A stretch of 64,000 nt of DNA from an uncultured Sphingobacteriales bacterium (GCA_964474835.1 CAYYUA010000004.1:33848-97847), one strand, 5' to 3'. Positions 7,897 through 59,041 are shown, counted from the stretch's first letter. Made by a program: numbers and translations. Notes: a model not told the origin generated them from the sequence alone.

Positions 7897-7974
7897 TGCC
7901 TCGGGCCCATCCCTACAGCCCTCCGCAGAGTTGCTCAAGCCTTCTAAATTCAGCTAACAGCTTAGCCATCCCTT

Positions 7975-11257: not shown

Positions 11258-11290
11258 AGGGTAGACTTTTAAGCTTGTTGACCTTATTCA

Positions 11291-11611
11291 TCATTGATCA
11301 GTAAGCACGGCCCTGGCGGCCATCAGGCAGGCTGCCTGGTTCATAAGCTCACTCAGGGCGGCAAGCTCGTAGTAGTTGAGGGTTATCTTGACCTGATGGG
11401 AGCTGGTTTCGCACACAAAAATTTTCTCGTTAGGATTATCCGGGTTGGGTGTTTCGGCAAGTTGTTGATTAGCTCCTTTGAGCATGAATTCAAACTCCGC
11501 ATCCGACAGGGTTAGCCAGCAGGTGCCAAAACTGACATGCAAGGCCTGGCAATGCGGACATTGCGCTACATAGCCAAAATGAGAGGTGTGTAACACATCA
11601 CCATTACACAT
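11291..11611 (-). CDS. Small hypothetical Cys/His-rich protein
   Basis: A 106-aa ORF packed between hemS and the TonB receptor on the same strand, with 33- and 54-nt spacers. The N-terminus MCNGDVLHTSHFGYVAQCPHCQALH is Cys/His rich. No known family was recognised. Confidence 0.35.
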   Translation of the reverse strand: MCNGDVLHTSHFGYVAQCPHCQALHVSFGTCWLTLSDAEFEFMLKGANQQLAETPNPDNPNEKIFVCETSSHQVKITLNYYELAALSELMNQAACLMAARAVLTDQ

Positions 11612-11665
11612 AAATAGAAGAATTTTTGATTGGGTTTTGCCGGGTGCAGAACCTTAATGGTTGTT

Positions 11666-12763
11666 TTAGTAAGCGTGTTGTTCCTCCACGTTTCGCATTA
11701 GCTCCGTCCAGGCGGATAGCTCGGTCTCATTAGGTTTGCGCTCCCCAAAGAGGGTCAATACCAATTCCTGCTGGTGATTGAAGACCTCAAGGGAGGTGAT
11801 CAAACCATTAGCGGAGGGCTTACGAACAATCCAGGTCTGCTCAATGCCGGCCTCATTAAGATGCAAGTTGAAATTCGGGTCCATGACGTTGTACCATGGC
11901 CGGTATTCAACCAACTTCCTGACGGTTCCGGTATGGATCTGGATAAGCCCATCGTTGCCTACAAAGGCCATGATCGGCACCTTGGCTTCAGCGGCTTTTT
12001 CAAGTACGGTACGAATGGCGGCATGGGTAACGGGCACCGCATAATGGCCATCCGGTGCCAGCCGCAAGGCCTGGGTACGGGTTAGTTGGTAGCGCTTTAA
12101 CAACCCATGAAATTCATGGGTATGCTGCATGTTAAGCCAGCTTTCCCGGAAGCCTGCCTGATCAATGGCTTCATCCGGAAGCGCTTCAGGGGATTGGGAT
12201 TCGGTAGGGGTAACGGCTTCCCAAGGCGCTTGGTCTTCATGTTTAAATTCAGCAAAGATTGACTGAAAGCCCGCAATATCACTGTGAGGCGTCTGGTAAA
12301 TCTTTAGAATGGCGGTACCCCTTTGATCGAAAACTTGCAGGCTATGCCGCGGACTATTACCAGGATGATCAACCACCCCAAAGGCTTTGTCCCAATTCCA
12401 CATGAACAGCCGCTGGTCTATATCCTGGCTTACAAACATGCCCATCTTATAGTGGTCGTCAAATTCCGGCTGCGGAAATGTGCCAACCTTTTCATGGACC
12501 ACATCTTCATTGCGGATTATGGATTTAACCTCTGCCAGACGGGCCAAGCTTCTTAAAAGCGAAGGAAAGTCAGGGGTTAAACGGGTCACTTGGAGATCAC
12601 CGGTTTCCCCACAGTACGCTGCTATGAGCTCAGCTTCCGATACACCCAGTTCATGGGCTGCGTCACGGGTGCGCATTTTTGGCCGGGCCTTTTTCAGGTC
12701 CGCCCATTGTTCCTTTAGGTCTGGTTTTGTCTGTTCCATTGCTTTACGTTTTAGGTGATTCAA
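11666..12763 (-). CDS. hemS: Hemin transport/degradation protein HemS/ChuS/HmuS family
   Basis: 365 aa in two homologous halves. Conserved blocks align with Yersinia HemS: LAEVKSIIRNEDVVHEKVG, IMAFVGNDGLIQIHTGTVRKL, and NLHLNEAGIEQTWIVRKPSANGLITSLEVF. Confidence 0.85.
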   Translation of the reverse strand: MNHLKRKAMEQTKPDLKEQWADLKKARPKMRTRDAAHELGVSEAELIAAYCGETGDLQVTRLTPDFPSLLRSLARLAEVKSIIRNEDVVHEKVGTFPQPEFDDHYKMGMFVSQDIDQRLFMWNWDKAFGVVDHPGNSPRHSLQVFDQRGTAILKIYQTPHSDIAGFQSIFAEFKHEDQAPWEAVTPTESQSPEALPDEAIDQAGFRESWLNMQHTHEFHGLLKRYQLTRTQALRLAPDGHYAVPVTHAAIRTVLEKAAEAKVPIMAFVGNDGLIQIHTGTVRKLVEYRPWYNVMDPNFNLHLNEAGIEQTWIVRKPSANGLITSLEVFNHQQELVLTLFGERKPNETELSAWTELMRNVEEQHAY

Positions 12764-12855: not shown

Positions 12856-13719
12856 TTATATAAATCTGTCATTGGTAGTGTTAGGCGTTAGGGTTTCGTA
12901 ATTCGCAGAAACCGGAGTATGGCGAAAGGACGAGCGCCCGAAGAAAACCTGCGGGCAAGCTTTGAAGGGATGGGACTGGACCATCACTGGAAACTGGTAG
13001 CATTCAGCCAATAAAGCTTCCTGCAAAACCTCGTCAGGCTTGCCGATGGCCATTTTTTGCCCCTCATTGAGCAAAAGTAGGCGATCGGCATACATAGCCG
13101 CCAGGTTCAGGTCATGCAAAACGGCTATGGCCACGTGGCCCTGACCTGTAAAGGTCCTTACCACTTCCATGATTTCATGCTGATGCCGTACATCAAGGTT
13201 GTTCAACGGTTCATCCAGCAAAAGCAATTTAGGCTGAGCCGCATACTGCCCCGTCCAAACCTGCGCCAGGACCCGGGCCATCTGAACACGCTGTTGCTCA
13301 CCGCCGGATAGGGTTAAGTAATACCGCTTAGCCAAATGCGTAACGCCCGTTTGCTGCATGGCCTCCCGGATAGCCGACCAGTCCGCTTCTCCCGGTTGGT
13401 ATTGAAAGTGCGGATAACGCCCCATCTTCACCACCTCTTCTACCGGGAAATCATAGCTCATCGCAGTATGCTGTGTAAGAACCGCTCGCTCTTTTGCTAA
13501 CTCCGGGCCTTTGAAGGCATTCAGCGGATACTTACCCCACCAAACGCGCCCTCCGGAAAGGCGGCTTTCCCCGCTTAGCAACTGAAGTAGCGTTGATTTT
13601 CCAGCGCCATTCGGGCCCAGGACGCCCAGCAATTCACCAGCTTCAGCGGTGAGATTCAGAGGCTCCAGAATGGGTTTTTGACGGACCCGGTACGTTATGT
13701 TCTCTGCTTGCAAAATCAT
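12856..13719 (-). CDS. hmuV: Hemin ABC transporter ATP-binding protein (FecE/HmuV type)
   Basis: Walker A GPNGAGKST, signature LSGGEQQRV, and Walker B LLLLDEP. It overlaps the permease gene by 4 nt. Confidence 0.85.
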   Translation of the reverse strand: MILQAENITYRVRQKPILEPLNLTAEAGELLGVLGPNGAGKSTLLQLLSGESRLSGGRVWWGKYPLNAFKGPELAKERAVLTQHTAMSYDFPVEEVVKMGRYPHFQYQPGEADWSAIREAMQQTGVTHLAKRYYLTLSGGEQQRVQMARVLAQVWTGQYAAQPKLLLLDEPLNNLDVRHQHEIMEVVRTFTGQGHVAIAVLHDLNLAAMYADRLLLLNEGQKMAIGKPDEVLQEALLAECYQFPVMVQSHPFKACPQVFFGRSSFRHTPVSANYETLTPNTTNDRFI

Positions 13720-35979: not shown

Positions 35980-37380
35980 ATGGATGAGTTTGAAAACAGT
36001 TATGAGGGCGAGACACGGGACTTGGTTCAGCGGTACGAGGAGCTGATCAAAAACAACGCAAGCTTCTTTCTGGAGGTCGAAGAGTTTGAAAACATCATAG
36101 AGTACTACCTTAGCCGGAACCACATAGATAAGGCCCTGGAAGTAACAGATACTGCACTTGACCAACATCCGTTTGTCGTCAATTTTATGACGCGGAAGGC
36201 CGAACTTTTACTGTTTGACCAGGCATTTGAAGAGGCGCTCGAACTGTTAGAAAAGGCTCAAACGCTGGAGCCCTCTAACCACGACATCTACCTTCTTATT
36301 GCAAGCGTTTATGAAGACATGGAGGACTTCAGTGCCGCCATTGAATCCTACGATACAGCGCTCAACCTTCAGAGTGGCAATACTGACGAGATCTATCTCC
36401 TGAAAGCTTTTACCTATGAAGGATGGGACCGGTTTGACGATGCCATTGATTGCCTGAAATTAGCCCTTCAAAACAATCCTAATAACAAGCAGGCGCTGTA
36501 CGAGCTGGCTTACTGTTACGATCAGCAGAACGAGCCGGAGAAAAGCATAGAGTTTTACCAGCAATTTATTGATGAGGATCCTTTTGCTTACCAGGCGTGG
36601 TACAACTTAGGGCTCCTTTACACCAAGATCAACATGCTGGAGAAAGCTACCGAGGCTTTTGACTATGCGATAGTTATAAAGGAGGACTATGCCCCCGGCC
36701 ATCAGCAGCTGGGTAAAACTTATTTAGTGCTGGGTAATTACGAAAAGGCCATTGAGCACTTAACTTTTTACATTCAGCATACAAGACCCAATGTAGCTAC
36801 TTACTGCCAGATCGCAGACTGCTACCAAAACCTGGAAAAGCAAGAGCTGGCCCGGGATTACTACCGCAAAGCGCTTGACGTTAACAATGATTACGCAGAA
36901 GCTTGGTACGGCATGGGGATCACTTACCAAAAGGAAATGCGATACCAGCAGGCTATTCCTTTTCTGGAAAAAGCCGTGGGATTAAAAGAAGAAGAAGATT
37001 ACTGGTTTGCCCTGGCTGATAGTTATAATTTTTTAAGCCGGGAAGAGCAGGCCAAGGGCGCTTATCGCAAAGCTATTGAGATTGACCCTACCTTAATTGA
37101 AGCGTGGACTGAGTTTGCCCTGATGCTTTATGAGATCGGGCAAGGTGAGGCCAGCGCTGACCTGGTAAAAGAGGGGTTAAGGGAAAACCCGGATTCTGAC
37201 GAGCTGTACCTCCTTTTAAGTGGGATGCTTGTGGAAAAAGGAGCTAAAACTGAAGCCTCTTTTTACCTGGAAAACGGTCTGCGCCTCAATCCGGAAGGTC
37301 CTGAGCTGTTATTTGAATACTTTCCGCACCTTGAGCAGGACAGTTGGCTCCTGAATTTTATCCAAAACAATCAGTCATAG
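35980..37380 (+). CDS. Tetratricopeptide-repeat protein
   Basis: At least eight TPR units (the AxxYxxAL…P.… pattern), with no signal peptide. Confidence 0.75.
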   Translation: MDEFENSYEGETRDLVQRYEELIKNNASFFLEVEEFENIIEYYLSRNHIDKALEVTDTALDQHPFVVNFMTRKAELLLFDQAFEEALELLEKAQTLEPSNHDIYLLIASVYEDMEDFSAAIESYDTALNLQSGNTDEIYLLKAFTYEGWDRFDDAIDCLKLALQNNPNNKQALYELAYCYDQQNEPEKSIEFYQQFIDEDPFAYQAWYNLGLLYTKINMLEKATEAFDYAIVIKEDYAPGHQQLGKTYLVLGNYEKAIEHLTFYIQHTRPNVATYCQIADCYQNLEKQELARDYYRKALDVNNDYAEAWYGMGITYQKEMRYQQAIPFLEKAVGLKEEEDYWFALADSYNFLSREEQAKGAYRKAIEIDPTLIEAWTEFALMLYEIGQGEASADLVKEGLRENPDSDELYLLLSGMLVEKGAKTEASFYLENGLRLNPEGPELLFEYFPHLEQDSWLLNFIQNNQS

Positions 37381-37383
37381 GCT

Positions 37384-38181
37384 ATGTCAGTCAATTTTGA
37401 TCTGAGAGATATACCAGAGCGTACCCAGAAGAACCGCGATCATGGCTTAACCATGGTAATGGATAAGGGGTTGAGCTGTAAAATGGTGGAAGACCTCCTC
37501 GATACTGCAGGAGAGTACATCGATATTGTGAAGCTTGGCTTCGGTAGTGCTTTTGTAACTCCTAATCTGGAAGAGAAACTACAGGTTTACCGCAGCTTTG
37601 ATGTGCCAACCTACTTTGGGGGTACCCTCTTTGAAGCCTTTGTTATCCGCAATCAGTATGAGGACTACAAGCGCCTGATGGAGCAATACCACATCAAGCA
37701 CGTAGAAGTGTCTGATGGATCACTGCTAATACCCCATGATAAGAAGTGCGAATTCATAGAGGATCTGGCCCGCGACTTTACGGTTCTTTCGGAAGTGGGT
37801 TCAAAAGATGCTGAAACCATTATCCCTCCCTACAAGTGGATTGAGCTAATGCGGAAAGAGTACGATGCTGGTAGTGATAAAGTGATAGCTGAGGCTCGTG
37901 AGAGCGGAACAGTTGGAATTTTCCGGGAAACAGGTGAAGTGCGGTCCGGGCTGGTGGATGAAATCCTAACCCAGATCGATGGACGCAAAATTATCTGGGA
38001 GGCGCCTCAGAAGTCCCAGCAAGTCTGGTTCATCAAGCTTCTGGGCCAGAATGTAAACCTTGGCAACATCGCACCACAGGAAGTCATACCCCTTGAGACC
38101 ATGCGGGTCGGTATGCGGGCTGATACCTTCGCCGATTTCCTTTACAAGAACCATTCTAACTTCGAGCTGCGACAGGTTTAA
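37384..38181 (+). CDS. comA: (2R)-phospho-3-sulfolactate synthase (ComA family)
   Basis: 265 aa with the family blocks KNRDHGLTMVMDKG, DIVKLGFGSAFV, and HVEVSDGS. Confidence 0.8.
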   Translation: MSVNFDLRDIPERTQKNRDHGLTMVMDKGLSCKMVEDLLDTAGEYIDIVKLGFGSAFVTPNLEEKLQVYRSFDVPTYFGGTLFEAFVIRNQYEDYKRLMEQYHIKHVEVSDGSLLIPHDKKCEFIEDLARDFTVLSEVGSKDAETIIPPYKWIELMRKEYDAGSDKVIAEARESGTVGIFRETGEVRSGLVDEILTQIDGRKIIWEAPQKSQQVWFIKLLGQNVNLGNIAPQEVIPLETMRVGMRADTFADFLYKNHSNFELRQV

Positions 38182-38325: not shown

Positions 38326-41295
38326 ATGCTCAGAGCCTGCTTAGTCATCCTTGCCATTTTCGCTGGTTTTCTGCTGAATCCCGTCAAAGCTTTTGACCAT
38401 ACTGCCATCACTCCCGAAAGGCGGTCAGAAGCTCAGCATTGGGCGGATTCTGTTTACCAGGCGCTTAGTCCTGAAAAGCGGATCGCACAACTCATGATGG
38501 TGGCCGCTTACAGCAATAGAGGTGAGGGCCACAAGCAGAAAATCCTGAATCTGGTAAACCAGTACGGGGTTGGAGGGCTGATATTTTTTCAGGGTAAGCC
38601 AACCAGCCAACTGCAGCTGACAAATACCTACCAGAACAATGCAGATGTTCCTTTACTTATAGGGATGGATGCTGAGTGGGGTTTGGGCATGCGGCTGAAC
38701 CAAACCATGGATTTTCCGCGGCAGATGACCCTGGGTGCGGTTCAGGACCATTCCCTGATTAAACGAATGGGAAGGCACATCGGGCAGCAGTGCCGGCGGA
38801 TAGGCGTTCACATCAATTTTGCACCGGTCGTGGACGTCAATAGTAATCCACAGAATCCCGTTATTCACATGCGCTCATTCGGTGAAATTCCCGAACAGGT
38901 GGCGGAGCGGGCCTCAGCTTACCTTGATGGCTTGCAGCAAGCTGGCGTAATGGGAGTCGCTAAGCACTTCCCCGGCCATGGCGATACCGATCAGGATTCC
39001 CACAAAGCCCTCCCCGTGCTCGATCAGTCCAGAAAGGAGCTTCAGCGTACTGAACTTTATCCATTCAGGCGGATGATCAAGGAGCACGCTGGTGGTATCA
39101 TGAGTGGCCACCTTGCTGTTCCTTCGATGACCGGATCTGACAAAGCGCCTGCTTCCCTTTCCCCGAAAATGATACAGGGATACCTGCGGGACAGCCTTGG
39201 GTATCAGAATCTTGTTTTCACAGATGCCCTCAATATGCAGGGCGTCACGGATCAGTACGGGCCGGCTCGGGTAGCCGTCAAAGCCCTTCAGGCGGGAAAT
39301 GACATCCTGTTGTACCCGGAGGCTGTACCGCAGGCCATTAAACGCATTCAGTTTGCTGTTCAGAATCAGGCTATAGATACTGCAATGCTCCGGAAGCGCG
39401 TGAAAAAAGTTCTGCGGGCCAAATACTATGCAGGTCTTTCGGAATTCAATGCTTTAGCTGCGGAAGGCGTGCAGGACGACCTTCATTCGCCGGAAGCGCT
39501 CGATGTAAAGCATCAACTGGCTGAAGGCGCTATGACCCTGGTAAAAGACCCCCTTGAGCTCGTGCCCTTGAAAGATCTATCCAAAGTATCAATTGCCTCC
39601 CTGGCAATAGGCGGAAGCGATGAGAATGCCTTTCAGGACCGGTTAGGGCAGTATGCAGACGTCAGGCAGTTTCACTTACCTCACGATGCCGGTGTTGAAG
39701 CCTTTTCCCGCATGAAGGCAAAGCTTAAGGATTACAACAGGGTGATCCTGAGCGTACATGGGCAGAGCTTCCGGGTAAACCAGAACTTCGGACTTTCTGA
39801 AGAATTGATAGATCAGGTTAATGAACTTGCCAAAGACCAGCTTACCATCCTGGTCAATTTTGGGTCTCCCTATGCCTTAGCCCTCTACAACAATAACCAG
39901 GCTGTTTTGCAGGCCTATGAGGGTGATAAAACCTTCCAGGAAGCTGCAGCTCAGGCGCTGTTTGGTGGGTTTAAGATTACAGGAGAGCTGCCTGTAAGCG
40001 TTCAGGATCGCTATCAGGCTGGGGATGGGATAAAGACCAGTGATGCTTTGAGATTTAACTACACGCTGCCTGAACGGCTTGGTATCAGCTCGGCTTTTTT
40101 GAGCCATCACATCGACTCTCTGGTACAAACGGCTCTTGAAAAAGAAGCTACTCCCGGTTGTCAGGTATTTGTGGCTAAAGAGGGCAATGTTATCTTTAAC
40201 CAAGGGTATGGACACTATACCTACGGAGACACACAGGCTGTGAATTCCCAAACCATCTATGATATCGCTTCTATTACGAAGATCGGAGCGACTGTTCCGG
40301 TGGTTATGCAGCTTTATGAGGAGGACCGTATTGACCTTCGGGACTCACTCGGGAAGTATCTGAACCGGTACCTTGATTCCATTAAGCGTGATCTTCAGCT
40401 TAAGGAATTGCTGACCCATCAGGCCGGTCTTACTGCGTGGATCCCTTTCTACCGCTATACGCTGAATGACCAGGGTTTTTGTGATTCAAACTATTGCTAC
40501 CGACCCAACAGCTTCTACTCGATGCAGGTAGCTGAAGACCTTTACTTACAGCGGGGTTACCGCGACTCAATCTGGCGTACCATAGCAGAGTCCGAAATGC
40601 ACGAAAGGGGCAGCTACAACTATAGCGACCTGGGCTTTTTTTACCTGAAAAAGGTCATTGAGCAATTTCTTGACAGGCCCTTCCGCCAGTATGCCCGGCA
40701 GGAGTTTTTCCGACCACTCGGTATGAACCGGACTGTTTTCAAACCGCTTGAGCAGTTTCCCTTATCCCGCATAGTACCTACGGAGGATGATGATTACTTC
40801 CGTCACCAGCTGGTGCATGGGTATGTTCATGACCCGGCTGCTGCAATGCTGGGTGGCGTAGCTGGTCATGCCGGCCTTTTCAGCACTACCCATGATTTTG
40901 CTAAACTAATGCAGATGTTGCTCAATGAGGGGGCCTATGGTGGGAAGCGGTACTTTGATCCTGCAACTGTTCAATTGTTTACTTCCCAACAGTATGAAGA
41001 TAACCGGAAAGGATTAGGCTTTGACAAGCCTGAGCCTGATACCAGCAAAGTGAGCCCAACTGGTGAATTGGCGTCATTGCAGACATTCGGTCACACTGGA
41101 TTCACCGGAACCTGTATCTGGGCTGATCCGAAGCATGACCTGATCTACGGCTTCTTTTCCAACCGGGTTCATCCGGATGCCGATAATGAGAAGCTTATCT
41201 CCATGGATTTTCGCACCAAAATTCAGGATGCCATTTACCGGTCATTCCTTGACAAGAATGCGATTGAGAAACGGCAAGGTCAAACTGTTCAGTGA
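38326..41295 (+). CDS. Bifunctional glycoside hydrolase family 3 (NagZ-like beta-N-acetylhexosaminidase) / serine beta-lactamase-like hydrolase
   Basis: An N-terminal GH3 domain (KHFPGHGDTDQDSHK) is fused to a C-terminal class-C/AmpH-like domain with the SxxK motif (IASITKIGATV). Confidence 0.8.
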   Translation: MLRACLVILAIFAGFLLNPVKAFDHTAITPERRSEAQHWADSVYQALSPEKRIAQLMMVAAYSNRGEGHKQKILNLVNQYGVGGLIFFQGKPTSQLQLTNTYQNNADVPLLIGMDAEWGLGMRLNQTMDFPRQMTLGAVQDHSLIKRMGRHIGQQCRRIGVHINFAPVVDVNSNPQNPVIHMRSFGEIPEQVAERASAYLDGLQQAGVMGVAKHFPGHGDTDQDSHKALPVLDQSRKELQRTELYPFRRMIKEHAGGIMSGHLAVPSMTGSDKAPASLSPKMIQGYLRDSLGYQNLVFTDALNMQGVTDQYGPARVAVKALQAGNDILLYPEAVPQAIKRIQFAVQNQAIDTAMLRKRVKKVLRAKYYAGLSEFNALAAEGVQDDLHSPEALDVKHQLAEGAMTLVKDPLELVPLKDLSKVSIASLAIGGSDENAFQDRLGQYADVRQFHLPHDAGVEAFSRMKAKLKDYNRVILSVHGQSFRVNQNFGLSEELIDQVNELAKDQLTILVNFGSPYALALYNNNQAVLQAYEGDKTFQEAAAQALFGGFKITGELPVSVQDRYQAGDGIKTSDALRFNYTLPERLGISSAFLSHHIDSLVQTALEKEATPGCQVFVAKEGNVIFNQGYGHYTYGDTQAVNSQTIYDIASITKIGATVPVVMQLYEEDRIDLRDSLGKYLNRYLDSIKRDLQLKELLTHQAGLTAWIPFYRYTLNDQGFCDSNYCYRPNSFYSMQVAEDLYLQRGYRDSIWRTIAESEMHERGSYNYSDLGFFYLKKVIEQFLDRPFRQYARQEFFRPLGMNRTVFKPLEQFPLSRIVPTEDDDYFRHQLVHGYVHDPAAAMLGGVAGHAGLFSTTHDFAKLMQMLLNEGAYGGKRYFDPATVQLFTSQQYEDNRKGLGFDKPEPDTSKVSPTGELASLQTFGHTGFTGTCIWADPKHDLIYGFFSNRVHPDADNEKLISMDFRTKIQDAIYRSFLDKNAIEKRQGQTVQ

Positions 41296-41311
41296 CCGTT
41301 GGTTCTACCTG

Positions 41312-41325
41312 GTTTCATGTGAAAC
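41312..41325. repeat. 14-bp inverted repeat GTTTCATGTGAAAC, copy 1; identical copy at 45135..45148
   Basis: An exact 14-mer located 17 nt after the NagZ/beta-lactamase stop codon and 70 nt before the histidine-kinase start. Confidence 0.6.
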
Positions 41326-41395
41326 AATTCCGGTTTTTCTGGATTTTTGGGTAGAGGGCTTTTGCTCTCGGCAATAAACTAAGACCAGCATTCCA

Positions 41396-44300
41396 TTGAA
41401 GCCTCAGCCAGAAAAAATCCTCAAACGATACCCGCTTCTAGTAGCAGGGGTTGCAGTCCTGCTTCTTTCGCTGCTGTTGGATTATGCCCTGTTACCCGCC
41501 TATTATAAGTATAAAGCGAATAACCTTCCGGAAACTATCCAAAAGCAGGTCATTGCGCAGGAGGCAGTTGCTGACTCACTTGCAGCTGAAATCAGGCGCA
41601 GGAATCAAGCCGGCACCGAAGTGGACTTTAAGCCCTTAGCCGATCGCGCAGCGCGTGAGGATCTGCTGGTTTACGTGTACCGGGGTGGCAAACTGGTTTA
41701 CTGGCAGACGAATCAGGTGCTTCCCAGGCCCGGCCCTGAGGTTTATCAAGCCTTCAGAACCGTTGAGCGAGGCAAGGGTGTTTACTTACAGCGCGGAAGC
41801 CGGGCAGGCCCCTATACCGTACGCGTTCTTAAACCCCTTAAACAGGATTATTCGCTCGAGAACGAGTACCTGAAATCGCGGCTACTGCTTGCGGATGTTA
41901 ACGCACAGCACCTGGCTTTTAACCGTAATCAGCAAGGTGCGGCCATCCTTAATAGCAATCAGGATTACCTCTTTAGCCTTAAACCAGATAGCTCTGCAGG
42001 TCACCGATCCGGCGGCCTTAAATGGCTATACCTGCTGGGTACCGTGTTGGGAACTTTCGGTTTCACCAGTCTTATCAGTCGCTTGTTGTTCCGGCGGTAC
42101 TACAAGGCCGGCATGGGCATGCTGGCTATGAGCTCGTTTTTACTAATGCTTAACCACCTTTACCTGCAGTTCCCTGCCTTAATTTACCAGGGCGCGCTTT
42201 TCGAGCCTGGTAAGCTGCCCCAAGGCTTATTTTTTTCCTCAGTTGGCGGGTTTGCCTTAGTTGTTTTGCTGCTCACCTTCTTTATCCACTATGTTACCAA
42301 ACACCTACAACTTCCCTCCTACCTTGGTAGCCGTGCTAATTACCTTGGACTTCTCGGGTTGTTTTTCATGCTGACGGTCGGAGCCAGCCATTGTGTTGTG
42401 ATGGCCCTTCAAAACCTGGTTATTGATTCGGCAGTTTACCTTAACGTGAAGGAAGTTAAGCGGCTGGACCTTCTCTCTTTGGTTACCATCGTGACTACGT
42501 TTCTGCTTTTTTATAACCTCATTGTTTCAGCTTTTTGGTTTTACAACCAGCTAAAAACGTTCATCAAGAATAATTACGTGCTGGTGATCGGCTGCTTTTT
42601 GGTACTTATTCTCTCCTACCAGCTTTTCAGCCAGTTCTCGCTTTACGCCAATCATTACGCTGGCTTATTCGCCCTCCTCCTCTGGCTGGGTTTCCTGGCA
42701 TTTTACCCCAGTAACCCTTCCTTCTACGGCCCCCTTATTTACCTTATCCTGATAAGCTCAGGCTTTGCTGCCATTCATCTAATCAACTTTAATGAGAACA
42801 AGTCCCTCCAGCGGCAGAAACGATTTGCCACGCAGGTGACCTACCAGCGGGATGCGGTTGCTGAGGAGCTTTTTGGAAATGTTTCACGTGAAATCAAACA
42901 GGACCAGTATACCAAGAACTATTTCCTGAGCCCCCTCCTTCCCAAGAGTTTTTTAAAAAGGCGTATTAAACAGCTTTACCTGAGTCGCTACCTGAATAAA
43001 TACAATTTTAAGCTTCATACTTACAAGTACGGAGGAATTCCCTACAAAGGGAGTTCAGAACACTCGCTGGATTACTTCAGGCAGCTAGTCGAGAAATATG
43101 GCCTAAAGGCATCGGCTAAAAATCTTTACTACATCAATAAGACCGGCACCAACTCATCGTATCTGGCCATCTACAACTTCAATGCTTATGGCGGTCAGTT
43201 CGGTACGATGGTCATCGAGCTTCAGAAGAAAGTGTTCTATGAAGACCGCATTTATCCAGCACTCCTCCTCAGAGGTGATCTGAAGAACAAAGACCGAACT
43301 CATGATTACAATTACGCGATATACAAGAACAACCGCCTGATTGCCCAAAAAGGTAATTACCCCTACACCATAACTGATCAGTTCGAGGGTGGTAGTGGCG
43401 TCTACAATGATTTCAAAGAGGGCCAGTACCATCACCTATCCCATCAGGTCAGTCACAATACTTTTGTTGTAGTTAGCCGGCAGACCTCCAATGTGCTGAA
43501 TAAGCTGTCTGTCTTTTCATTCCTGTTTATTCTGTTCTTCATCCTCTCCGTTATCAGCATTAGCTTTCAGAAACAAAATTTTCAGCAGGTAAAGGATCTG
43601 AGCCGGGCTGTTTATCAAAGGGATCTGCGGTACTTTAAGCCTTTTAAGCATCTGCTTTTTCAGCGAAAAATTCAGTTGGTGATCCTGCTTACCGCCCTGA
43701 TGGTGATGGTCACAGTTGGCGTTAGCACGGTTAACTATCTGCGCTACAGTTTCAACGAGCAACTCAACAGTGAGCTTAGCCAGAAAACCAAAAAGATCAT
43801 CCCGCTTATAGAGCAGTTCCTTAAGGAAAATGAAGGTGGAAGGCCGATCTACAGCAACCGCGAAGAGCTGTTTGCTGAGGTCAAAAAGCTCACCCGCCGG
43901 TTTCAGACGGATATTAACCTCTACAACACTGATGGAGAGCTAATAACCACCTCCCAGCCCCGTATTTACAAAAAAGGAATTCTTACCCGTCAAATGGATC
44001 CGCTTGCTTTCAAGCGAATGAAAGTTGATAAACAAGCTCAGACCATTCAGAACGAGCAAATCGGAAAGCTTGAATACCTGGCCTCTTATGCCCCGATAAG
44101 GGATTCCGACAATAAAATCATTGGCTTTTTAAACCTCCCCTATTTTTCAAAACAGCCCGTCCTTCAGCAGGAGATCTCATCCCTGCTCGTTACCCTTGTC
44201 GATCTCTACGTGCTGATATTTCTCTTTGTGCTGATCATCTCCCTTTTTATATCCAATACACTGACGCAGCCGCTGGACCTGATCCGGGAGAAACTGCGAA

Positions 44301-45133
44301 AGACCCAGCTCGGTCAGACCAACGAACCCATCAACTGGGAAAGCCGCGATGAACTAGGCCAACTTATCCAGGAGTATAACCAGATGGTGAGTGAGCTGGA
44401 GCGAAACGCTGCTACATTAGCTCAGTCTGAAAGGGAAGGCGCCTGGCGGGAGATGGCCAGGCAGGTGGCTCATGAGATCAAGAACCCCCTAACACCCATG
44501 AAGCTGAATATCCAGCGCCTGCAGCAACAGTTCCCCCAGAATGGCAGTGATCAGAATCAGCATGTTCACCGGGTAAGTAAGATTCTTACAACCCAGATTG
44601 ACCACTTATCCAAGATCGCAACCGATTTCTCAGCCTTTGCGCAACTGTCCCTCGGTAGCCCGGTGTCACTAGATATTCACCAGGAGCTAGAGAACCTGGT
44701 GGAGTTCTTTGACCAGGAAGAGAGAAGCCGGGTAACCTTAGACCTGTCGCCTACCCCGCCCTATGTGTGGATTGACCCTAACCATTTCAACCGGATCCTG
44801 ACAAACCTGATCAAAAACGCCTTTGAAGCCATTCCTGAGGACCGGGAAGGCAGGGTTGAAATTGGTACCTGCGGTATAAAAGATCAGTACGTCTGCTTAT
44901 GGGTCAGTGATAATGGCAAAGGGATCCCCACCGATGAACAGGCTCATATCTTTCAGCCCAATTTCAGCACCAAAGGGTCAGGGACTGGCTTAGGGTTAGC
45001 CATGATAAACAAGATGATGGAAAGTGCCGGCGGAAGCATTACGTTTACCTCATTGCCTGACGAGGGCACCACTTTTTACCTCTACTTCCAGGTAGTATCA
45101 CATCAAGAGGCGACCCACCGAGTACCGGAGTAG
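41396..45133 (+). CDS. Multi-pass membrane sensor histidine kinase with no receiver domain and no adjacent response regulator
   Basis: 1245 aa with about 11 predicted TM segments and two large non-cytoplasmic loops. It carries an HisKA H-box (HEIKNPLTPMKL) and HATPase_c G-boxes (DNGKGIP, GSGTGLGLAMINK). Confidence 0.85.
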   Translation: MKPQPEKILKRYPLLVAGVAVLLLSLLLDYALLPAYYKYKANNLPETIQKQVIAQEAVADSLAAEIRRRNQAGTEVDFKPLADRAAREDLLVYVYRGGKLVYWQTNQVLPRPGPEVYQAFRTVERGKGVYLQRGSRAGPYTVRVLKPLKQDYSLENEYLKSRLLLADVNAQHLAFNRNQQGAAILNSNQDYLFSLKPDSSAGHRSGGLKWLYLLGTVLGTFGFTSLISRLLFRRYYKAGMGMLAMSSFLLMLNHLYLQFPALIYQGALFEPGKLPQGLFFSSVGGFALVVLLLTFFIHYVTKHLQLPSYLGSRANYLGLLGLFFMLTVGASHCVVMALQNLVIDSAVYLNVKEVKRLDLLSLVTIVTTFLLFYNLIVSAFWFYNQLKTFIKNNYVLVIGCFLVLILSYQLFSQFSLYANHYAGLFALLLWLGFLAFYPSNPSFYGPLIYLILISSGFAAIHLINFNENKSLQRQKRFATQVTYQRDAVAEELFGNVSREIKQDQYTKNYFLSPLLPKSFLKRRIKQLYLSRYLNKYNFKLHTYKYGGIPYKGSSEHSLDYFRQLVEKYGLKASAKNLYYINKTGTNSSYLAIYNFNAYGGQFGTMVIELQKKVFYEDRIYPALLLRGDLKNKDRTHDYNYAIYKNNRLIAQKGNYPYTITDQFEGGSGVYNDFKEGQYHHLSHQVSHNTFVVVSRQTSNVLNKLSVFSFLFILFFILSVISISFQKQNFQQVKDLSRAVYQRDLRYFKPFKHLLFQRKIQLVILLTALMVMVTVGVSTVNYLRYSFNEQLNSELSQKTKKIIPLIEQFLKENEGGRPIYSNREELFAEVKKLTRRFQTDINLYNTDGELITTSQPRIYKKGILTRQMDPLAFKRMKVDKQAQTIQNEQIGKLEYLASYAPIRDSDNKIIGFLNLPYFSKQPVLQQEISSLLVTLVDLYVLIFLFVLIISLFISNTLTQPLDLIREKLRKTQLGQTNEPINWESRDELGQLIQEYNQMVSELERNAATLAQSEREGAWREMARQVAHEIKNPLTPMKLNIQRLQQQFPQNGSDQNQHVHRVSKILTTQIDHLSKIATDFSAFAQLSLGSPVSLDIHQELENLVEFFDQEERSRVTLDLSPTPPYVWIDPNHFNRILTNLIKNAFEAIPEDREGRVEIGTCGIKDQYVCLWVSDNGKGIPTDEQAHIFQPNFSTKGSGTGLGLAMINKMMESAGGSITFTSLPDEGTTFYLYFQVVSHQEATHRVPE

Positions 45134-45199: not shown

Positions 45200-46171
45200 A
45201 TGGCAATGGCCACAGGCGGCATACTAATAATAGGTTCAGAAGGACAAGTCGGATCAGAACTAGTTGCAGCTCTCCGCAGCCATTACCGGCCTTCCCGGGT
45301 TATAGCAGCAGACCTTAAAAGTCCGGAATCGGTAGAGGGTCATGAAGGGCCCTATGAGCAGCTTGACGTTCTGGATAAGGATCACATCGAGCGCATCATT
45401 CAGAAGAATCAGGTTACGGAGGTTTACAACCTTGCTGCCCTTTTATCCGCATCAGCGGAGGCAAAACCTATGATGGGCTGGAGCCTGAACATGAATGGCC
45501 TGCTAAACACCCTTCAACTGGCGAAGGACACTGGTATAAAACGGGTTTTCTGGCCGAGCTCTATTGCCGTTTTTGGTCCAACCACGCCAAAAACAGCTAC
45601 GCCTCAGCATACGGTCATGGATCCCAACACGGTATATGGGATTTCCAAGCTAGCCGGAGAACGGTGGTGCCAGTACTTTCACAATCAGTATGGAATAGAT
45701 ACGCGAAGTATTCGGTATCCGGGGCTGATTAGCTACAAAACGGAACCCGGAGGCGGCACCACTGACTATGCAGTAGATATTTTTCACCAGGCGTTGTCCA
45801 CAAGTACGTACACATCGTTCCTGAAACCGGATACCTACCTGCCCATGCTGTATATGCCGGACGCCATCCGGGGCACCGTTGAGCTGATGCATGCGGACGC
45901 TTCCAGATTGAGCCTGCACAGCAGCTATAACCTTGGTGGCCTGAGCCTGGCCCCCGAAACGCTGGCGGATACTATCCAGCAACAGGTTCCGGATTTTTCA
46001 ATCCAGTATGAACCAGACTTCCGGCAGGCCATTGCAGATACCTGGCCTAGCTCTATTGATGATTCCATAGCCCGAGCAGACTGGGGATGGAAACCGGCTT
46101 ATTCCCTCAATGGCATGGTGATGGATATGTTAAAGCAGTTAAGAGCTCAAAAGGACTCAAGCAAAGCATGA
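45200..46171 (+). CDS. tdh: NAD-dependent epimerase/dehydratase-family L-threonine 3-dehydrogenase
   Basis: Contains the blocks SIRYPGLIS, GGGTTDYAVDIFH, and YEPDFRQAIADTWPSSIDDS, characteristic of short-chain/epimerase-type TDH. Confidence 0.75.
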   Translation: MAMATGGILIIGSEGQVGSELVAALRSHYRPSRVIAADLKSPESVEGHEGPYEQLDVLDKDHIERIIQKNQVTEVYNLAALLSASAEAKPMMGWSLNMNGLLNTLQLAKDTGIKRVFWPSSIAVFGPTTPKTATPQHTVMDPNTVYGISKLAGERWCQYFHNQYGIDTRSIRYPGLISYKTEPGGGTTDYAVDIFHQALSTSTYTSFLKPDTYLPMLYMPDAIRGTVELMHADASRLSLHSSYNLGGLSLAPETLADTIQQQVPDFSIQYEPDFRQAIADTWPSSIDDSIARADWGWKPAYSLNGMVMDMLKQLRAQKDSSKA

Positions 46172-47313
46172 AAATTGGTATTGTTGGCTACCCAACCTTC
46201 GGCGGAAGCGGAGTGGTAGCAACTGAGCTTGGCAAAGCCCTGGCCGCAAAAGGCCACCAGGTTCACTTTGTTTCTTACAAGCAGCCAGTAAGGCTGGATA
46301 ATCAGGGTGAGAATATTTTCTTCCACGAGGTGAATATTGTAAAGTATCCCCTATTCGAGTACCCGCCTTACGAACTGGCTTTGATCAGCAAGCTTGTGGA
46401 CCTGATCAACTACGAGCACCTGGATATCCTGCATGTGCACTATGCCATTCCCCATGCTTTTGCGGCTTACATGGCGAAGACTATGCTGGCTCAGAATGGC
46501 TATACGATTCCAATCGTGACCACTCTTCACGGTACTGACATTACCTTGGTTGGCAATGATCCCACCTTTGAAACAGCAGTTACTTATTCTATTAATCACT
46601 CGGATGCCGTAACGGCAGTTTCGCAATACCTCAAAAAGGCAACTTACGAGTCGTTTGACGTTTCTAAGGATATTCTGCACGTTCCGAACTTTATCGATAC
46701 CAAAACTTTCCCCGAGCCACCAGAACCCGGATTCCGTAATTCGATAGCAGACCCAGCAACCCCTATCCTGACTCATATTTCTAATTTCCGGGAGGTTAAG
46801 CGTGTGGAGGATGTGGTTAAACTATTTTCAGAAGTCCGGCAAACGATACCGGCTAAGCTGCTAATGGTTGGAGATGGCCCTGAGCGGACCAAGGCAGAAA
46901 AAGCCTGCCGCGAACTGGCTTATTGTAATGATGTGCGTTTTATGGGCAAGATGGATGATGTGGCCAGGATCCTGAACATTTCAGACCTCTTTCTGCTGCC
47001 ATCAGCCACCGAAAGTTTTGGCCTGGCCGCCCTGGAGGCCATGACGGCAGGTGTTCCTGTTATTTCTTCGGATACAGGGGGGCTGCCGGAAGTTAATATT
47101 AGTGGTAAAACAGGCTTTACAGCACCCGTTGGGCACACGAAGGAGATGGCTCATAAAGCGCTTAAGCTGCTGTCCAATCAATCAATGATGACGCAATTCA
47201 AGGAACAGGCAGTAGCCCAGGCAAAAGCTTTTGATATCAGCAAGGTAATGCCAATATATGAGCGGCTCTATGAAGACTTGCTGGAAGCCCAGGCAGTTCC
47301 GGAGTCTTATTAG
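46168..47313 (+). CDS. bshA: GT4 glycosyltransferase BshA (N-acetyl-alpha-D-glucosaminyl L-malate synthase, bacillithiol pathway)
   Basis: The internal start [22 protein letters not shown]… makes an ATGA overlap with tdh. Blocks [38 protein letters not shown], and [18 protein letters not shown] closely match B. subtilis BshA. Confidence 0.8.
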
Positions 47314-54671: not shown

Positions 54672-55910
54672 ATGAATGTAGATGAGTTAAGAGAGTCATT
54701 TGCGGACTTCAGAGAATTCAAAAATGTGGATCGTGCTACCATGATGCGCGTTCTGGAGGAAGTTTTCCGCAACATGCTTAGAAAGAAGTACGGCACGGAT
54801 GAAAACTTTGATATCATTATCAATGTAGAAAAAGGAGATATTGAGGTCTGGCAGAACCGGACCATCGTAGAAGATGGAAAGGTCACAGACGAAACTTCGG
54901 AGGTAGAGCTTTCGGAGGCTGTGAAGGTAGAGCCAGACTTTGAGGTTGGCGAGGATCTGTCTGAAGAGGTCAAGTTGGCTTCTTTTGGCCGGCGGGCTAT
55001 CATGGCCGCCCGGCAGAATCTGATCAACAAGATTCTTGAGCTGCAGAAGGAAGAAGTGTTTAACCTGTACCAGGATCGTATCGGGGAGATCGTTTCAGGT
55101 GAGGTTTACCAGGTATGGCGGAAAGAGCTTTTGGTGCTGGATGATGAGGGCAACGAACTCATCCTGCCGAAAGAGGAGATGATACCGCGGGATTTCTTCA
55201 AGAAAGGGGATACCCTTCGCGCTGTCGTTAAGAGCGTGGACACCCGGAACTCGGCTCCGCTTATCCTTCTCTCCCGGACTGCTCCTGATTTTCTGGAACG
55301 CTTGTTTGAACTGGAGGTCCCGGAAATCGCCGATGGCTTGATAACCATCCACAAAATTGTGAGAGAGCCAGGCGAGCGGGCCAAAGTCGCTGTTGAATCC
55401 TATGACGACCGCATCGATCCAGTTGGAGCCTGTGTAGGGATGAAGGGCTCCAGAATTCACGGTATTGTTCGTGAGCTGCGGAATGAGAATATCGATGTTA
55501 TCAACTATACCACGAATACGCGGTTGTATATTAGCAGGGCACTAAGCCCGGCACGCGTAAGTACTGTGGATCTGGATGAAGAGAATAACAAAGCGGATGT
55601 CTACCTTAAATCCGATAGTGTTTCATTAGCTATTGGCAAGGGTGGCCTGAACATTAAGCTGGCCGCAAAGCTTACTGATTATGAGATAGATGTGTTCCGG
55701 GAAACTGATGGTGACGACTACGATATCGACCTGGATGAATTTAGCGATGAACTGGAAGGCTGGATTCTGGATGAGCTGAAGGAGATCGGCTGTGATTCAG
55801 CCAAGAGTGTGTTGGAACTATCAATTGAGGAATTGGTTAGACGAACTAACCTTGAGGAAGAGACGATAAAGGAAGTCTTATCGGTGCTGAATGCCGAATT
55901 TGAGCAATAA
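54672..55910 (+). CDS. nusA: Transcription termination/antitermination factor NusA
   Basis: S1 and KH domains (GxxG: IGKGGLNIKLA) and the N-terminal RNAP-binding domain. Confidence 0.95.
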   Translation: MNVDELRESFADFREFKNVDRATMMRVLEEVFRNMLRKKYGTDENFDIIINVEKGDIEVWQNRTIVEDGKVTDETSEVELSEAVKVEPDFEVGEDLSEEVKLASFGRRAIMAARQNLINKILELQKEEVFNLYQDRIGEIVSGEVYQVWRKELLVLDDEGNELILPKEEMIPRDFFKKGDTLRAVVKSVDTRNSAPLILLSRTAPDFLERLFELEVPEIADGLITIHKIVREPGERAKVAVESYDDRIDPVGACVGMKGSRIHGIVRELRNENIDVINYTTNTRLYISRALSPARVSTVDLDEENNKADVYLKSDSVSLAIGKGGLNIKLAAKLTDYEIDVFRETDGDDYDIDLDEFSDELEGWILDELKEIGCDSAKSVLELSIEELVRRTNLEEETIKEVLSVLNAEFEQ

Positions 55911-55924
55911 GGGGAAGTTGATAT

Positions 55925-58900
55925 ATGCCAGAAACTAAAACACCAAAGAGGTTACAACGGGTAGCAAAAGACCTGAACGTGGCTACCACCACTATTAAGG
56001 AATACCTGCAAAAGCAGGGCATTGATGTCGGGACAAACCCCAATATCAAGCTATCCGAGGAAACCTATGAGCTCTTGCTCGAGAAGTTCCAGACAGATAA
56101 GCAGGCCAGGGAAAAGGCAGAGCAAGTTGTGTTACCCGGCTCCGAGAAAAAGAGCCAGAAAAAAGAGGAAGAGGCTACCTCAACCCAATCGCCCAGTAAA
56201 TCCCAGGAAGCAGAAGAATCTACACAAGCAGATACCTCATCCCCTGCTGGAAAAGAAGAAGAAGCTGGTACAACTCAGGCTGAAGCATCACAAACTGTAA
56301 CTGAGGAGCAACCACCTCAGGAAACAGCCGGGCAGGAAGGCGATGAAACAGCAACTGACGAACCGGCATCAGGGCAAGCGGACGAAAGCACCCAGCCATC
56401 GGAGGAAAGCAGTGAAACCCAGAATGGGCCCAAGGTTCTTGGAAAAATAGATGTTGATCAGCTAGACACTTCAAAGAAAAAGAAGTCCGGAAAGAAGTCA
56501 GCTGATAAGGATACCAAGCAAAAAGCACCAGCAGCTAGCAACGAACAAGCTGAGCAACCGGAAGAGCCTGTTACTGCCGGTCAGTCCGGTCAGCAGCAGC
56601 CAGGTGAGGAAGAAGAGGTTACCCAGGAAGTAGTAACAGAAGAAGAAACCAACCCAGAAAGTGATACGGAAGGGGTTTCCGATACTGATACCGCTCAGGA
56701 AACAGAAGATACAGCAGACCAACAGGCTGAAGCGCCTGATACAACTGAAGCTGAAACCCCGCCGGAAGAACAAGCTGACGACTCCTCGCAAAAAGCCCCT
56801 GAAGCGCAGAAAGGTGAGGAAGCTTCAGAAACCGTATCCAAGAAAGAAGATTACAGCCTGAGTGGCCCCACTGTGGTTGGAAAAATTGACCTTGATCAGG
56901 TCAAATCCAATAAGCCCAAGAAGAAAGAGCCCGTTGCATCTACCTCGGATATGTCCACTACCCGTAAAAAGCGGCGTAAGCGGAGACCTGTAAAAGGTGA
57001 AGAAGGGGAAAAGGCAGCCGACTCAACCAAGCAGGGAGATAAAGCGGCTAAAAAGGACACAGACAAAGCTGCTCCTGAAAAGCAGAAGGCCCAGCCCAAA
57101 AAGAAAGGCAAGAAGAAACAGGATAAAGAAGAGATTGACAGTAGCCAGGTACAAGAGCAGCTAAAGGAAACGCTCAACAAGCTATCTGGCGGCAACAAGT
57201 CCAGCCGCTCCAAATTCCGTAAGAAGAAGCGGGATGAAGAGCGGCAGCGGGAAGAAGCCCGTCAGGAAGAAATTGCTGAGAGCGAAAAGAACAAGCTTGA
57301 GGTGACGGAATTCATTACCGTTAACGAGCTGGCAAACCTTATGGATGTGCAGGTAACCGAGCTTATCGGTACCTGTATGAACATTGGTATCATGGTCAGC
57401 ATGAATCAGCGTATTGATGCCGAGACCATTACCGTCCTGGCTGATGAGTACGGCTATGATGTCGAGTTCACGGAAGCCGAGATGGACGAGCCTGCTCTGG
57501 AAGAGGAGGATAATCCGGAAAATTATACCCAAAAGCCGCCCGTTGTTAGTATCATGGGTCACGTTGACCACGGTAAGACGTCACTGCTTGACTACATCCA
57601 GGGGTCTAAGATCATTGCTGGTGAGTCCGGCAGCATTACTCAGCACATCGGGGCTTACGAAATTACCCTGCAGGATAACCGCAACATCACTTTCCTTGAC
57701 ACACCGGGGCACGAGGCCTTCACAGCCATGCGTGCGCGCGGAGCTAAAGCTACAGATGTTGCGATCATCATTATAGCAGCCGATGATGATATTAAGCCAC
57801 AGACCAAAGAGGCCATTAGCCACGCTCAGGCAGCGGGTGTGCCGATGATATTTGCCATCAACAAGGTAGATAAAGAGGGAGCCAGCCCGGACCGTATCCG
57901 CCAGCAACTGGCTGAAATGAACATCCTTGTGGAAGAATGGGGTGGCAAGTACCAGTCACAAGAGATCTCAGCTAAGCACGGGGATCAGGTTGATGACCTG
58001 CTTGAGAAAGTGCTGCTGGAAGCCGAACTGTTAGACCTGAAAGCAGACCCTGAAAAGCGGGCAGCTGGAACGGTTGTAGAGGCCTGGCTGGACAAAGGCA
58101 AGGGCTACGTTACCAACCTGCTGGTAGAGGGCGGAACCCTCCAGGTAGGCGATCCGGTGCTTGCCGGTGCTAACATGGCCCGTATCCGGGCAATGATGGA
58201 TGAGCGGGGCAACCGTATCCAGAAGGCAAAGCCCGGTACTCCGGTTCAGGTATTAGGGTTTGATGGTGCACCACAAGCAGGAGAACGCTTTTACGTGGCT
58301 GAAGAAGAACAAACTGCCAAGGAAATTGCGAATGAGCGCGCCCAGCTGATTCGCGAACAGGGCATCCGGGCGACCAAGCATGTAACACTTGATGAACTTG
58401 GCCGCCGCTTAGCCATCGGTAATTTCCAGGAACTCAATGTTGTGATCAAAGGTGACGTTGATGGCTCAATAGAAGCGATTGCTGACTCGCTTCAGAAGCT
58501 TTCTACTGAAGAAGTTCAGATTAATGTTATCCACAAGGGTGTTGGCCAGATATCAGAATCGGACGTTCTGCTGGCTTCTGCCTCAGATGCTATCATTGTT
58601 GGCTTCCAAGTCCGGCCCTCTTCCAATGCGCGCAGATTAGCAGACCAGGAGCAGATCGATCTTCGCCTTTACTCCGTTATTTACGATGCCGTCCAGGAGG
58701 TCAAGTCGGCTATGGAAGGCATGCTAAAACCAAGGGTAGAAGAGAAGATTGTCGGAAATGTTGAAGTCCGGCAGGTCTTTAAGGTATCCAAGGTTGGCAC
58801 AGTAGCTGGCTCGAAGGTGACAAGTGGAAAGATCACTCGTAACGCTAAGGTTCGGGTTATCCGGGAAGGCGTTGTAGTTCATACCGGTGAAATTGATACC

Positions 58901-59041
58901 CTGAAGCGTTACAAGGATGACGTGAAGGAAGTCGCCTCCGGTTACGAATGCGGGCTGAATATCAAGAACTTCAATGATATACAGGAAGGTGACTACTTAG
59001 AGGTCTACGAAGAGTACGAAGTCAAGCGTTCACTTAACTAG
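55925..59041 (+). CDS. infB: Translation initiation factor IF-2
   Basis: G-domain motifs [17 protein letters not shown] and NKVD. It has a ~430-aa low-complexity E/K/Q/T-rich N-terminal region. Confidence 0.95.

Follow-up and report, generated by a model that had tools for sequence, protein, structure and literature searches.

A predicted 12-helix orphan sensor kinase of a widespread Bacteroidota family and the neighbouring GH3/beta-lactamase fusion gene of an uncultured Sphingobacteriales bacterium

Introduction

A 64-kb stretch of DNA from an uncultured Sphingobacteriales bacterium (GCA_964474835.1 CAYYUA010000004.1:33848-97847; the whole of it is referred to here as the window) contains a gene for a glycoside hydrolase family 3 (GH3)/beta-lactamase fusion enzyme and, immediately downstream, a gene for a very large sensor histidine kinase (HK). 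Among the closest described systems for the enzyme, AmiE is a beta-lactamase-fold N-acetylmuramic acid (MurNAc)-L-Ala amidase that acts after NagZ, and in Bacillus subtilis the two (YbbE and YbbD, respectively) are separate proteins, whereas in the enzyme described here the two predicted activities are on one polypeptide. RmNag3 (Rmar_0925) of Rhodothermus marinus combines a GH3 beta-N-acetylglucosaminidase with a beta-lactamase domain at the C-terminus; it cleaves p-nitrophenyl (pNP)-beta-N-acetylglucosamine (pNP-beta-GlcNAc) and chito-oligosaccharides, and its proposed role is in peptidoglycan turnover in the periplasm (PMC6987092).

For the kinase the nearest described systems are AtoS, ZraS, NtrY and WalK (YycG). 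NtrY, AtoS and ZraS have two to four transmembrane (TM) helices and one periplasmic domain, NtrY is accompanied by an adjacent ntrX gene, and WalK, a Firmicutes kinase, has two TM helices, a cytoplasmic PAS domain and an adjacent WalR gene. The kinase of the window, with 12 predicted TM helices and three predicted periplasmic domains, may work like these systems, but it belongs to none of them. The best explanation of the locus is that these are two neighbouring genes without a detectable functional link: a putative periplasmic enzyme of the RmNag3 type, and an orphan 12-TM kinase of a Bacteroidota-wide family with an unlinked partner, likely of the NtrC/NtrX type. This reading is given a probability of about 0.6.

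Results and Discussion

Conservation of the gene pair

Two open reading frames (ORFs) are called on the + strand with a gap of 100 nt between them, in agreement with a preliminary description of the window that had reported a co-oriented pair at these positions:

38326..41295, + strand: GH3/beta-lactamase fusion gene (ORF1), 989 aa, ATG start; from ORF calling, Pfam and PDB homologues
41396..45133, + strand: sensor histidine kinase gene (ORF2), 1245 aa, TTG start, orphan with 12 predicted TM helices; member of a Bacteroidota-wide family

A database protein 99% identical to the ORF2 product (P0001) has the same length, 1245 aa.

The comparative set consists of the best 80 loci kept from a genome scan that matched at least 585 Bacteroidota species genomes, and upstream sequence of at least 3.1 kb is present in 68 of them. 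Even at E ≤ 1e-3, a GH3/beta-lactamase-like gene is present in the 10 kb around the kinase gene at just one of the 80 loci (L011), where it is 8.5 kb away and on the opposite strand. Adjacency of the two genes is confined to three close relatives with 47–60% kinase identity, the spacing being 85–100 nt across the window and these relatives. In all three the ~20-kb TPR-ComA-GH3/beta-lactamase-HK-SDR-BshA-Big_5-MnmG-YbeY block is wholly syntenic, and adjacency of this one pair is therefore not a specific signal. Elsewhere the neighbours of the kinase gene vary by lineage and include MazG in the Chitinophagaceae, RlmH in the Bacteroidales, enoyl-CoA hydratase at loci with a short form of the kinase, and, in the Cytophagales, a cytochrome oxidase cluster upstream and an unannotated secreted protein of ~1165 aa downstream. 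Functional coupling of the two genes is not supported by these comparisons because a GH3/beta-lactamase-like gene is near the kinase at a single locus and adjacency is restricted to a syntenic close clade.

The preliminary description had taken co-orientation to suggest a peptidoglycan-sensing link, which would be given up if the two genes did not co-occur in other genomes; at the level of gene neighbourhood, in the 80 loci, they do not. The full form of that proposal is that the kinase and the NagZ/beta-lactamase fusion are co-transcribed and that the outside domains of the kinase sense peptidoglycan turnover products released by the enzyme. Their common strand and short spacing in the window and the three relatives would suit such a module, as would the predicted action of both enzyme and sensor in the periplasm; however, the one GH3/beta-lactamase-like gene near a kinase at another locus is on the opposite strand, and the close clade keeps every neighbour over ~20 kb, unrelated housekeeping genes included. 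A sensing module of this kind is therefore considered distinctly unlikely.

Lineage-specific neighbours of the kinase

The gene for the ~1165-aa protein is directly downstream of the kinase gene, on the same strand and with a median gap of 54 nt, in 13 Cytophagales-type loci and in L083. The protein has a signal peptide and a C-terminal Phe (coordinates L083 13058–16567, L053 11927–15430 and L033 13723–17214), and has no Pfam or NCBIfam match. Homology between its Cytophagales-type and L083 versions extends along the entire protein (26% identity, E 4e-123), and in these comparisons no other gene is a candidate for a neighbour with a conserved functional tie to the kinase. The kinase could accordingly be imagined as a sensor of outer-membrane or cell-surface biogenesis that works with this secreted, probably outer-membrane, protein, perhaps in analogy to PorY/PorX of type IX secretion; like PorY, the kinase family is orphan and restricted to the Bacteroidota (PMC10951265). 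The known likeness of the family to PorY (PGN_2001) is limited to being orphan and to the distribution by phylum; PorY, at about 400 aa, is a small kinase. Moreover, neither the window nor L081 or L082 contains the ~1165-aa gene, though L083, in the window's clade, has one; the gene neighbours the kinase in one lineage only, and the NCBIfam type IX secretion models gave no match. A role in surface biogenesis is thus thought unlikely.

Some 15 Cytophagales loci have a cytochrome c oxidase cluster ahead of the kinase gene and in the same orientation, containing SCO1 and DUF420 genes (identified by Pfam) and CoxII-like, heme O synthase-like and CoxIII-like genes (read from the sequences). This arrangement would fit a kinase that monitors respiration or membrane energetics, but the linkage is limited to one lineage and absent from the window, and conservation in the kinase falls on the periplasmic domains rather than within the membrane, making this the least credible of the readings and a very improbable one.

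The kinase family

A protein search with the full kinase returned about 30 full-length clusters of 1190–1300 aa, with 24–60% identity and 91–99% coverage. The N-terminal 760 aa alone, in an exhaustive HMMER search, matched 1352 representatives at 50%-identity clustering, of which almost all are 1190–1260 aa long and 1037 are at E ≤ 1e-10; a second, word-indexed protein search with the same 760 aa gave zero additional sequences. All 80 loci kept are from Bacteroidota, among them Chitinophaga, Sphingobacterium, Algoriphagus, Hymenobacter, Pontibacter, Flammeovirga, Arcicella, Carboxylicivirga, Saprospiraceae, Muribaculaceae and other Bacteroidales. With homology that is collinear over the full length, the 760-aa sensor half included, and a common size of ~1190–1260 aa, the kinase belongs to a large, uniform, unnamed and uncharacterised Bacteroidota family. 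Public names of its members are generic ('ATP-binding protein', 'sensor histidine kinase', 'MFS domain-containing histidine kinase'), and no paper on the family was found in the literature on NtrY/NtrX in Bacteroidota and on orphan kinases. The view that a kinase of this topology is not a described family thus holds as regards these generic names and a sensor half without a Pfam or NCBIfam model, but with 1352 representatives it is no oddity.

A ~1236-aa kinase ORF is present at 70 of the 80 loci. A short form of ~486 aa, matching only residues ~760–1230, is found at 13 loci (L056, L068, L077, L079 and L080 among them), several of which are Flavobacteriales; it has a TM-Cache-TM-HAMP-kinase architecture and is followed by an enoyl-CoA hydratase gene at six loci. 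The N-terminal sensor module of 750 aa is therefore dispensable or lost in that lineage. The protein P0280, which shares both a 90%-identity cluster and a length of 1248 aa with the Arcicella kinase, is filed in EukProt under the eukaryote Colpodella angusta, and most likely represents bacterial contamination of that transcriptome.

Orphan status and the partner regulator

The kinase is a true orphan, neither a hybrid kinase nor half of a linked pair. Pfam reveals no Response_reg domain within the protein, and tblastn with four receiver queries against the whole window gave nothing better than E 0.37, as expected from the earlier report of no receiver domain and no response regulator within many kb. 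The same four queries identified regulators within 10 kb of the kinase at six of the 80 related loci (E 1e-9 to 1e-18), a positive control which indicates that the search method works.

The transmitter core has its best NCBIfam and PDB matches to AtoS, ZraS and NtrB, which are kinases that pair with sigma-54 regulators, and several family members carry the JGI label 'NtrY'. Two loci from different, distant orders have a regulator of this class close to the kinase gene. In L073 a Rec-AAA+ regulator of the NtrC/NtrX type (10688–11863, − strand) is next to the kinase gene and convergent with it; in L037 a 39%-identical Rec-AAA+ regulator (6901–8082, − strand) is also convergent, 1.9 kb from the kinase gene. 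Both are ~390 aa long and apparently lack a C-terminal DNA-binding domain. Because of these core similarities, labels and neighbouring regulators, the partner is most probably an unlinked NtrC/NtrX-type (sigma-54 AAA+) regulator.

As a whole, the kinase differs from each described system, and its likeness to NtrY, AtoS and ZraS is confined to the transmitter core. AtoS has the most similar transmitter core (NCBIfam 2e-50), with a whole-protein score of 172 against a cutoff of 646; ZraS (NCBIfam 5e-35 for the core; PDB 9jfj, 2e-24, TM-score 0.81) scores 121 against 479. These NCBIfam matches, and that to WalK, span only kinase residues ~1000–1238. The kinase lacks the NtrY_N domain (PF19312) of NtrY and has no PAS domain between HAMP (ending at 1002) and HisKA (starting at 1017), and there is no adjacent regulator gene in the window to correspond to ntrX. 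Its C-terminal half is like WalK in overall layout, a point in favour of the cell-wall sensing module, but membership of the WalK family is contradicted by a score of 134 bits against a cutoff of 725.

Architecture of the kinase

The features of the kinase gene are as follows:

N-terminus of the kinase, + strand: TM1, then a long helix; predicted outside segment of ~170 aa up to the bundle (hydropathy, AlphaFold)
41630..41986, + strand: predicted periplasmic domain D1, alpha/beta, PDC/Cache-like (residues 79–197; conserved W103, G128, N156 and F193)
42011..42790, + strand: predicted eight-helix TM bundle (residues 206–465; hydropathy, AlphaFold), with conserved P260, F269, P271, S282, G284 and S345 in its periplasmic loops
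42854..43483, + strand: predicted periplasmic domain D2, PDC/dCache-like alpha/beta (residues 487–696)
43493..43732, + strand: predicted TM10 (700–722), cytoplasmic loop (723–754) and TM11 (755–779) (hydropathy, AlphaFold)
43733..44182, + strand: predicted periplasmic domain D3, single-Cache, sCache_3-like (residues 780–929; Pfam, AlphaFold)
44183..44401, + strand: predicted TM12 (930–948) and HAMP (951–1002) (Pfam, hydropathy, AlphaFold)
44444..45091, + strand: transmitter core, comprising HisKA, the dimerization and histidine phosphotransfer (DHp) domain with His1026 (AHEIKNPLTP), and HATPase_c; N, G1, F and G2 boxes invariant in the family

Pfam identifies HAMP at residues 951–1002, HisKA at 1017–1084 (PF00512, 33 bits) and HATPase_c at 1127–1232 (PF02518, 82 bits), the last two both above the Pfam cutoff. 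In an alignment of 31 family members, used for the Pfam scan and the catalytic boxes, H1026, N1137, N1141, D1172, G1174, G1176, F1186, F1190, G1196, G1198 and G1200 are invariant in all 31. By sequence the protein is thus a class I (HisKA/HATPase_c) sensor histidine kinase whose transmitter is catalytically complete as judged by its residues.

Hydropathy and two AlphaFold2 models, of residues 1–790 (predicted local distance difference test score, pLDDT, 80.4) and 690–1245 (pLDDT 78.3), predict 12 TM helices with the N-terminus inside and D1, D2 and D3 all outside; a cytoplasmic HAMP domain, given the inside N-terminus, fits this count. The order of elements reported earlier (an N-terminal TM, an outside segment of ~170 aa, eight clustered TMs, further outside loops and a HAMP/HisKA/HATPase core) is seen by Pfam, hydropathy and AlphaFold, although the ~11 TMs counted then were one short. 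The three domains are assigned to the Cache/PDC sensor domains, whose hallmarks are a long helix at the N-terminus, a central antiparallel sheet after it, and a periplasmic position between TMs. A weak sCache_3_3 match covers residues 827–912 and recurs in 14 of the 31 members (best E 2e-7).

Among solved structures there is no close relative of the 760-aa sensor half. Pfam searches of residues 1–760 (E ≤ 0.05) matched no family in any of the 31 members, no NCBIfam model matched the sensor half, and the MASE1, 7TMR-DISM and 5TMR-LYT models of Pfam matched no member; PF26769, precomputed for a distant member (P0027), is an accession outside the Pfam copy that was searched. MASE1 (8 TM) and 7TMR-DISM embody the same concept, a polytopic bundle with extracellular domains feeding a signalling output, but differ in that the bundle of the kinase is flanked on both sides by Cache-like domains and is without a Pfam match.

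Among 188 members aligned for sensor-half conservation, nearly all positions with at least 80% identity are in D1, D2, D3 or periplasmic loops; the exceptions are a few residues in TM10–TM12, and the cytoplasmic loop 723–754 is unconserved. This pattern is consistent with sensing on the periplasmic side. The conserved set in D2 is rich in aromatic and acidic residues (D486, E490, D503, Y532, Y536, Y589, Y638, Y643, Y657 and H680). In such richness the conserved periplasmic residues resemble sugar-binding sites, and this is a further point for a sensor of peptidoglycan fragments.

The GH3/beta-lactamase enzyme

The features of ORF1 are as follows:

38326..38391, + strand: predicted signal peptide MLRACLVILAIFAGFLLNPVKA, a hydrophobic leader recognised by reading the translation
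38473..39417, + strand: predicted GH3 N-terminal catalytic domain, with the NagZ motif KHFPGHGDTDQDSH at residues 213–226 and the FTDA nucleophile region at 298–301
40111..41190, + strand: predicted beta-lactamase-fold serine hydrolase domain, PBP4B/AmiE-like, with SITK at 649–652 and HTG at 923–925

Pfam matches Glyco_hydro_3 (PF00933) at residues 50–364 (E 1e-78, 265 bits) and Beta-lactamase (PF00144) at 596–955 (E 2e-45), with a weak, sub-threshold match to Glyco_hydro_3_C (PF01915) at 491–564. In the PDB, the N-terminal half has its best homologues in GH3 N-acetylglucosaminidases of the NagZ/YbbD type (1e-57 to 1e-61), B. subtilis NagZ (YbbD; 4e-58) being one of these. The Asp-His motif of NagZ is present in ORF1 too; KHFPGHGDTDQDSH is read against KH(F/I)PG(H/L)Gx4D(S/T)H, the NagZ signature with its Asp-His dyad. 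With both the GH3 domain and this motif, ORF1 is predicted to encode a NagZ-type GH3 beta-N-acetylglucosaminidase; the NCBIfam NagZ model, a cytoplasmic equivalog, scores 161 against a cutoff of 207.

The C-terminal half has its best NCBIfam match to E. coli PBP4B (YfeW; 5e-50), yet at 170 this is below the equivalog cutoff of 385. AmpH (1e-14; 54 against 266) and class C beta-lactamase (38 against 415) score lower still. Of the serine-hydrolase motifs SxxK, YxN and KTG/HxG, the first is seen as SITK and the last as HTG, while the middle one is not clear. The domain is accordingly assigned by sequence to the PF00144 superfamily and to no named equivalog tested. The earlier description of a NagZ-like GH3 domain fused to an AmpH-type hydrolase was right as to the fusion and the NagZ-type GH3; 'AmpH-type' is imprecise, PBP4B/YfeW being the better-scoring model.

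The order of the three domains (GH3, GH3_C and beta-lactamase) and the signal peptide are the same as in RmNag3, a match of architecture, and ORF1 is thus predicted to be a fusion of the RmNag3 type, an already known kind, although the host of RmNag3 belongs to a different phylum-level lineage. Hydrolase activity of the beta-lactamase-fold domain is a prediction for RmNag3 and ORF1 alike. From its domains and leader, the enzyme plausibly processes muropeptides or GlcNAc-containing substrates in the periplasm, so that the muropeptide-processing role suggested earlier is a reasonable one. The neighbours listed for RmNag3 include rlmN, an ATPase, methylmalonyl-CoA mutase and others (PMC6987092). 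Recurrence of the enzyme–kinase pair at that locus was considered on account of the entries 'ATPase' and 'transcriptional regulator' and rejected, as there is no kinase among the listed neighbours (PMC6987092).

The spacer and a palindrome bracketing the kinase gene

A 15-nt palindrome (also written TGTTTCATGTGAAACA) brackets the kinase gene:

41312..41326, strand not applicable: palindrome GTTTCATGTGAAACA, copy 1, in the spacer between the enzyme and kinase genes, after the enzyme stop codon; kept in L081 and L082 and partly in L083
45135..45149, strand not applicable: palindrome GTTTCATGTGAAACA, copy 2, exact, separated by 1 nt from the stop codon of the kinase gene and by 50 nt from the SDR start

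The upstream copy is conserved amid the otherwise diverged spacers of relatives, in which the palindrome is at 9920–9935 and 13698–13713 (L081) and 9925–9940 (L082). The palindrome might serve as an operator for a transcription factor or as a small hairpin after the stop codon. As RNA, its contexts fold no better than shuffled sequences (z −0.3 to −1.5), and a structured RNA or strong terminator at the palindrome is therefore rejected. The sole terminator-like element in a scan of the spacer is a weak 5-bp hairpin with a T-run at 41329–41351. A sigma-70-type promoter scan of the spacer, which does not cover Bacteroidota promoters, gave no recognisable promoter. The absence of a strong terminator between the genes would favour a co-transcribed sensing module, but a palindrome kept in a diverged spacer and recurring after the kinase hints at separate control or processing.

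Other features of the window

Directly upstream of the enzyme gene (35980–38181) are genes for a TPR protein and a ComA-type phosphosulfolactate synthase, a pair kept in all three close relatives. ComA is, to our knowledge, unusual outside methanogens, and its presence here may reflect a link to sulfonolipid synthesis. Downstream of the kinase gene an SDR epimerase ORF (45200–46171) overlaps the BshA ORF (46087–47313) by 85 nt as mechanically called; because the BshA model alignment begins at residue 28 and the overlap in relatives is 4 nt, BshA probably starts in fact near 46168. A Bacteroidota-type -7 element, TACTTTTG, is located ~12 nt upstream of the SDR start. AT skew is strong (0.37) at 56001–58000, within a 1038-aa ORF (55925–59041) that is preceded by a 412-aa ORF (54672–55910) equal in length to the NusA gene of relatives. 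An Rfam scan of the window gave no match.

Weighing of the two-gene reading

Several observations weigh against the interpretation of enzyme and kinase as merely neighbouring genes with an unlinked NtrC/NtrX-type partner. Adjacency is kept down to 47% kinase identity, such that a clade-specific link is possible, and an unconserved neighbourhood is also compatible with a functional relation between unlinked genes. The 100-nt spacer has neither a strong terminator nor a recognisable promoter, so the two genes may be co-transcribed. What points to the class of the partner is resemblance in the kinase core, together with two of the 80 loci.

If the two genes act independently, the enzyme would probably trim GlcNAc from muropeptides or chito-oligosaccharides, and its second domain may process the remaining MurNAc-peptide. 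The kinase would sense a signal from the periplasm or the outer leaflet through its triple-Cache/8-TM module and pass it via TM12 and HAMP to the class I transmitter, which would autophosphorylate His1026 and then phosphorylate a response regulator whose gene is elsewhere in the genome, most probably of the NtrC/NtrX (sigma-54 AAA+) type. We infer both the class of this regulator and the direction of signalling.

A broader and more speculative proposal, also judged unlikely, is that the family is an envelope sensor, conserved in much of the phylum, in which the triple-Cache and 8-TM module reads a glycan or lipid signal at the interface of periplasm and outer leaflet (peptidoglycan turnover products in the clade of the window, or a signal relayed by the ~1165-aa partner in the Cytophagales) and drives a sigma-54 regulon through an unlinked NtrC-like regulator without a DNA-binding domain. 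If true, the family would represent a novel sensor module, and with it a novel regulatory axis conserved in the Bacteroidota.

Because comparative genomics gives no backing to it, 'cell-wall-fragment sensing module' should not be carried over into annotations. The kinase family, which comprises over 1000 clusters at 50% identity and ranges from gut Bacteroidales to soil Chitinophagaceae, is among the most widespread and uniform sensor kinases of the Bacteroidota. The family as a whole is a worthwhile target, more so than this single locus, and a single tractable species, studied by genetics or phosphotransfer, would be enough to annotate thousands of genes.

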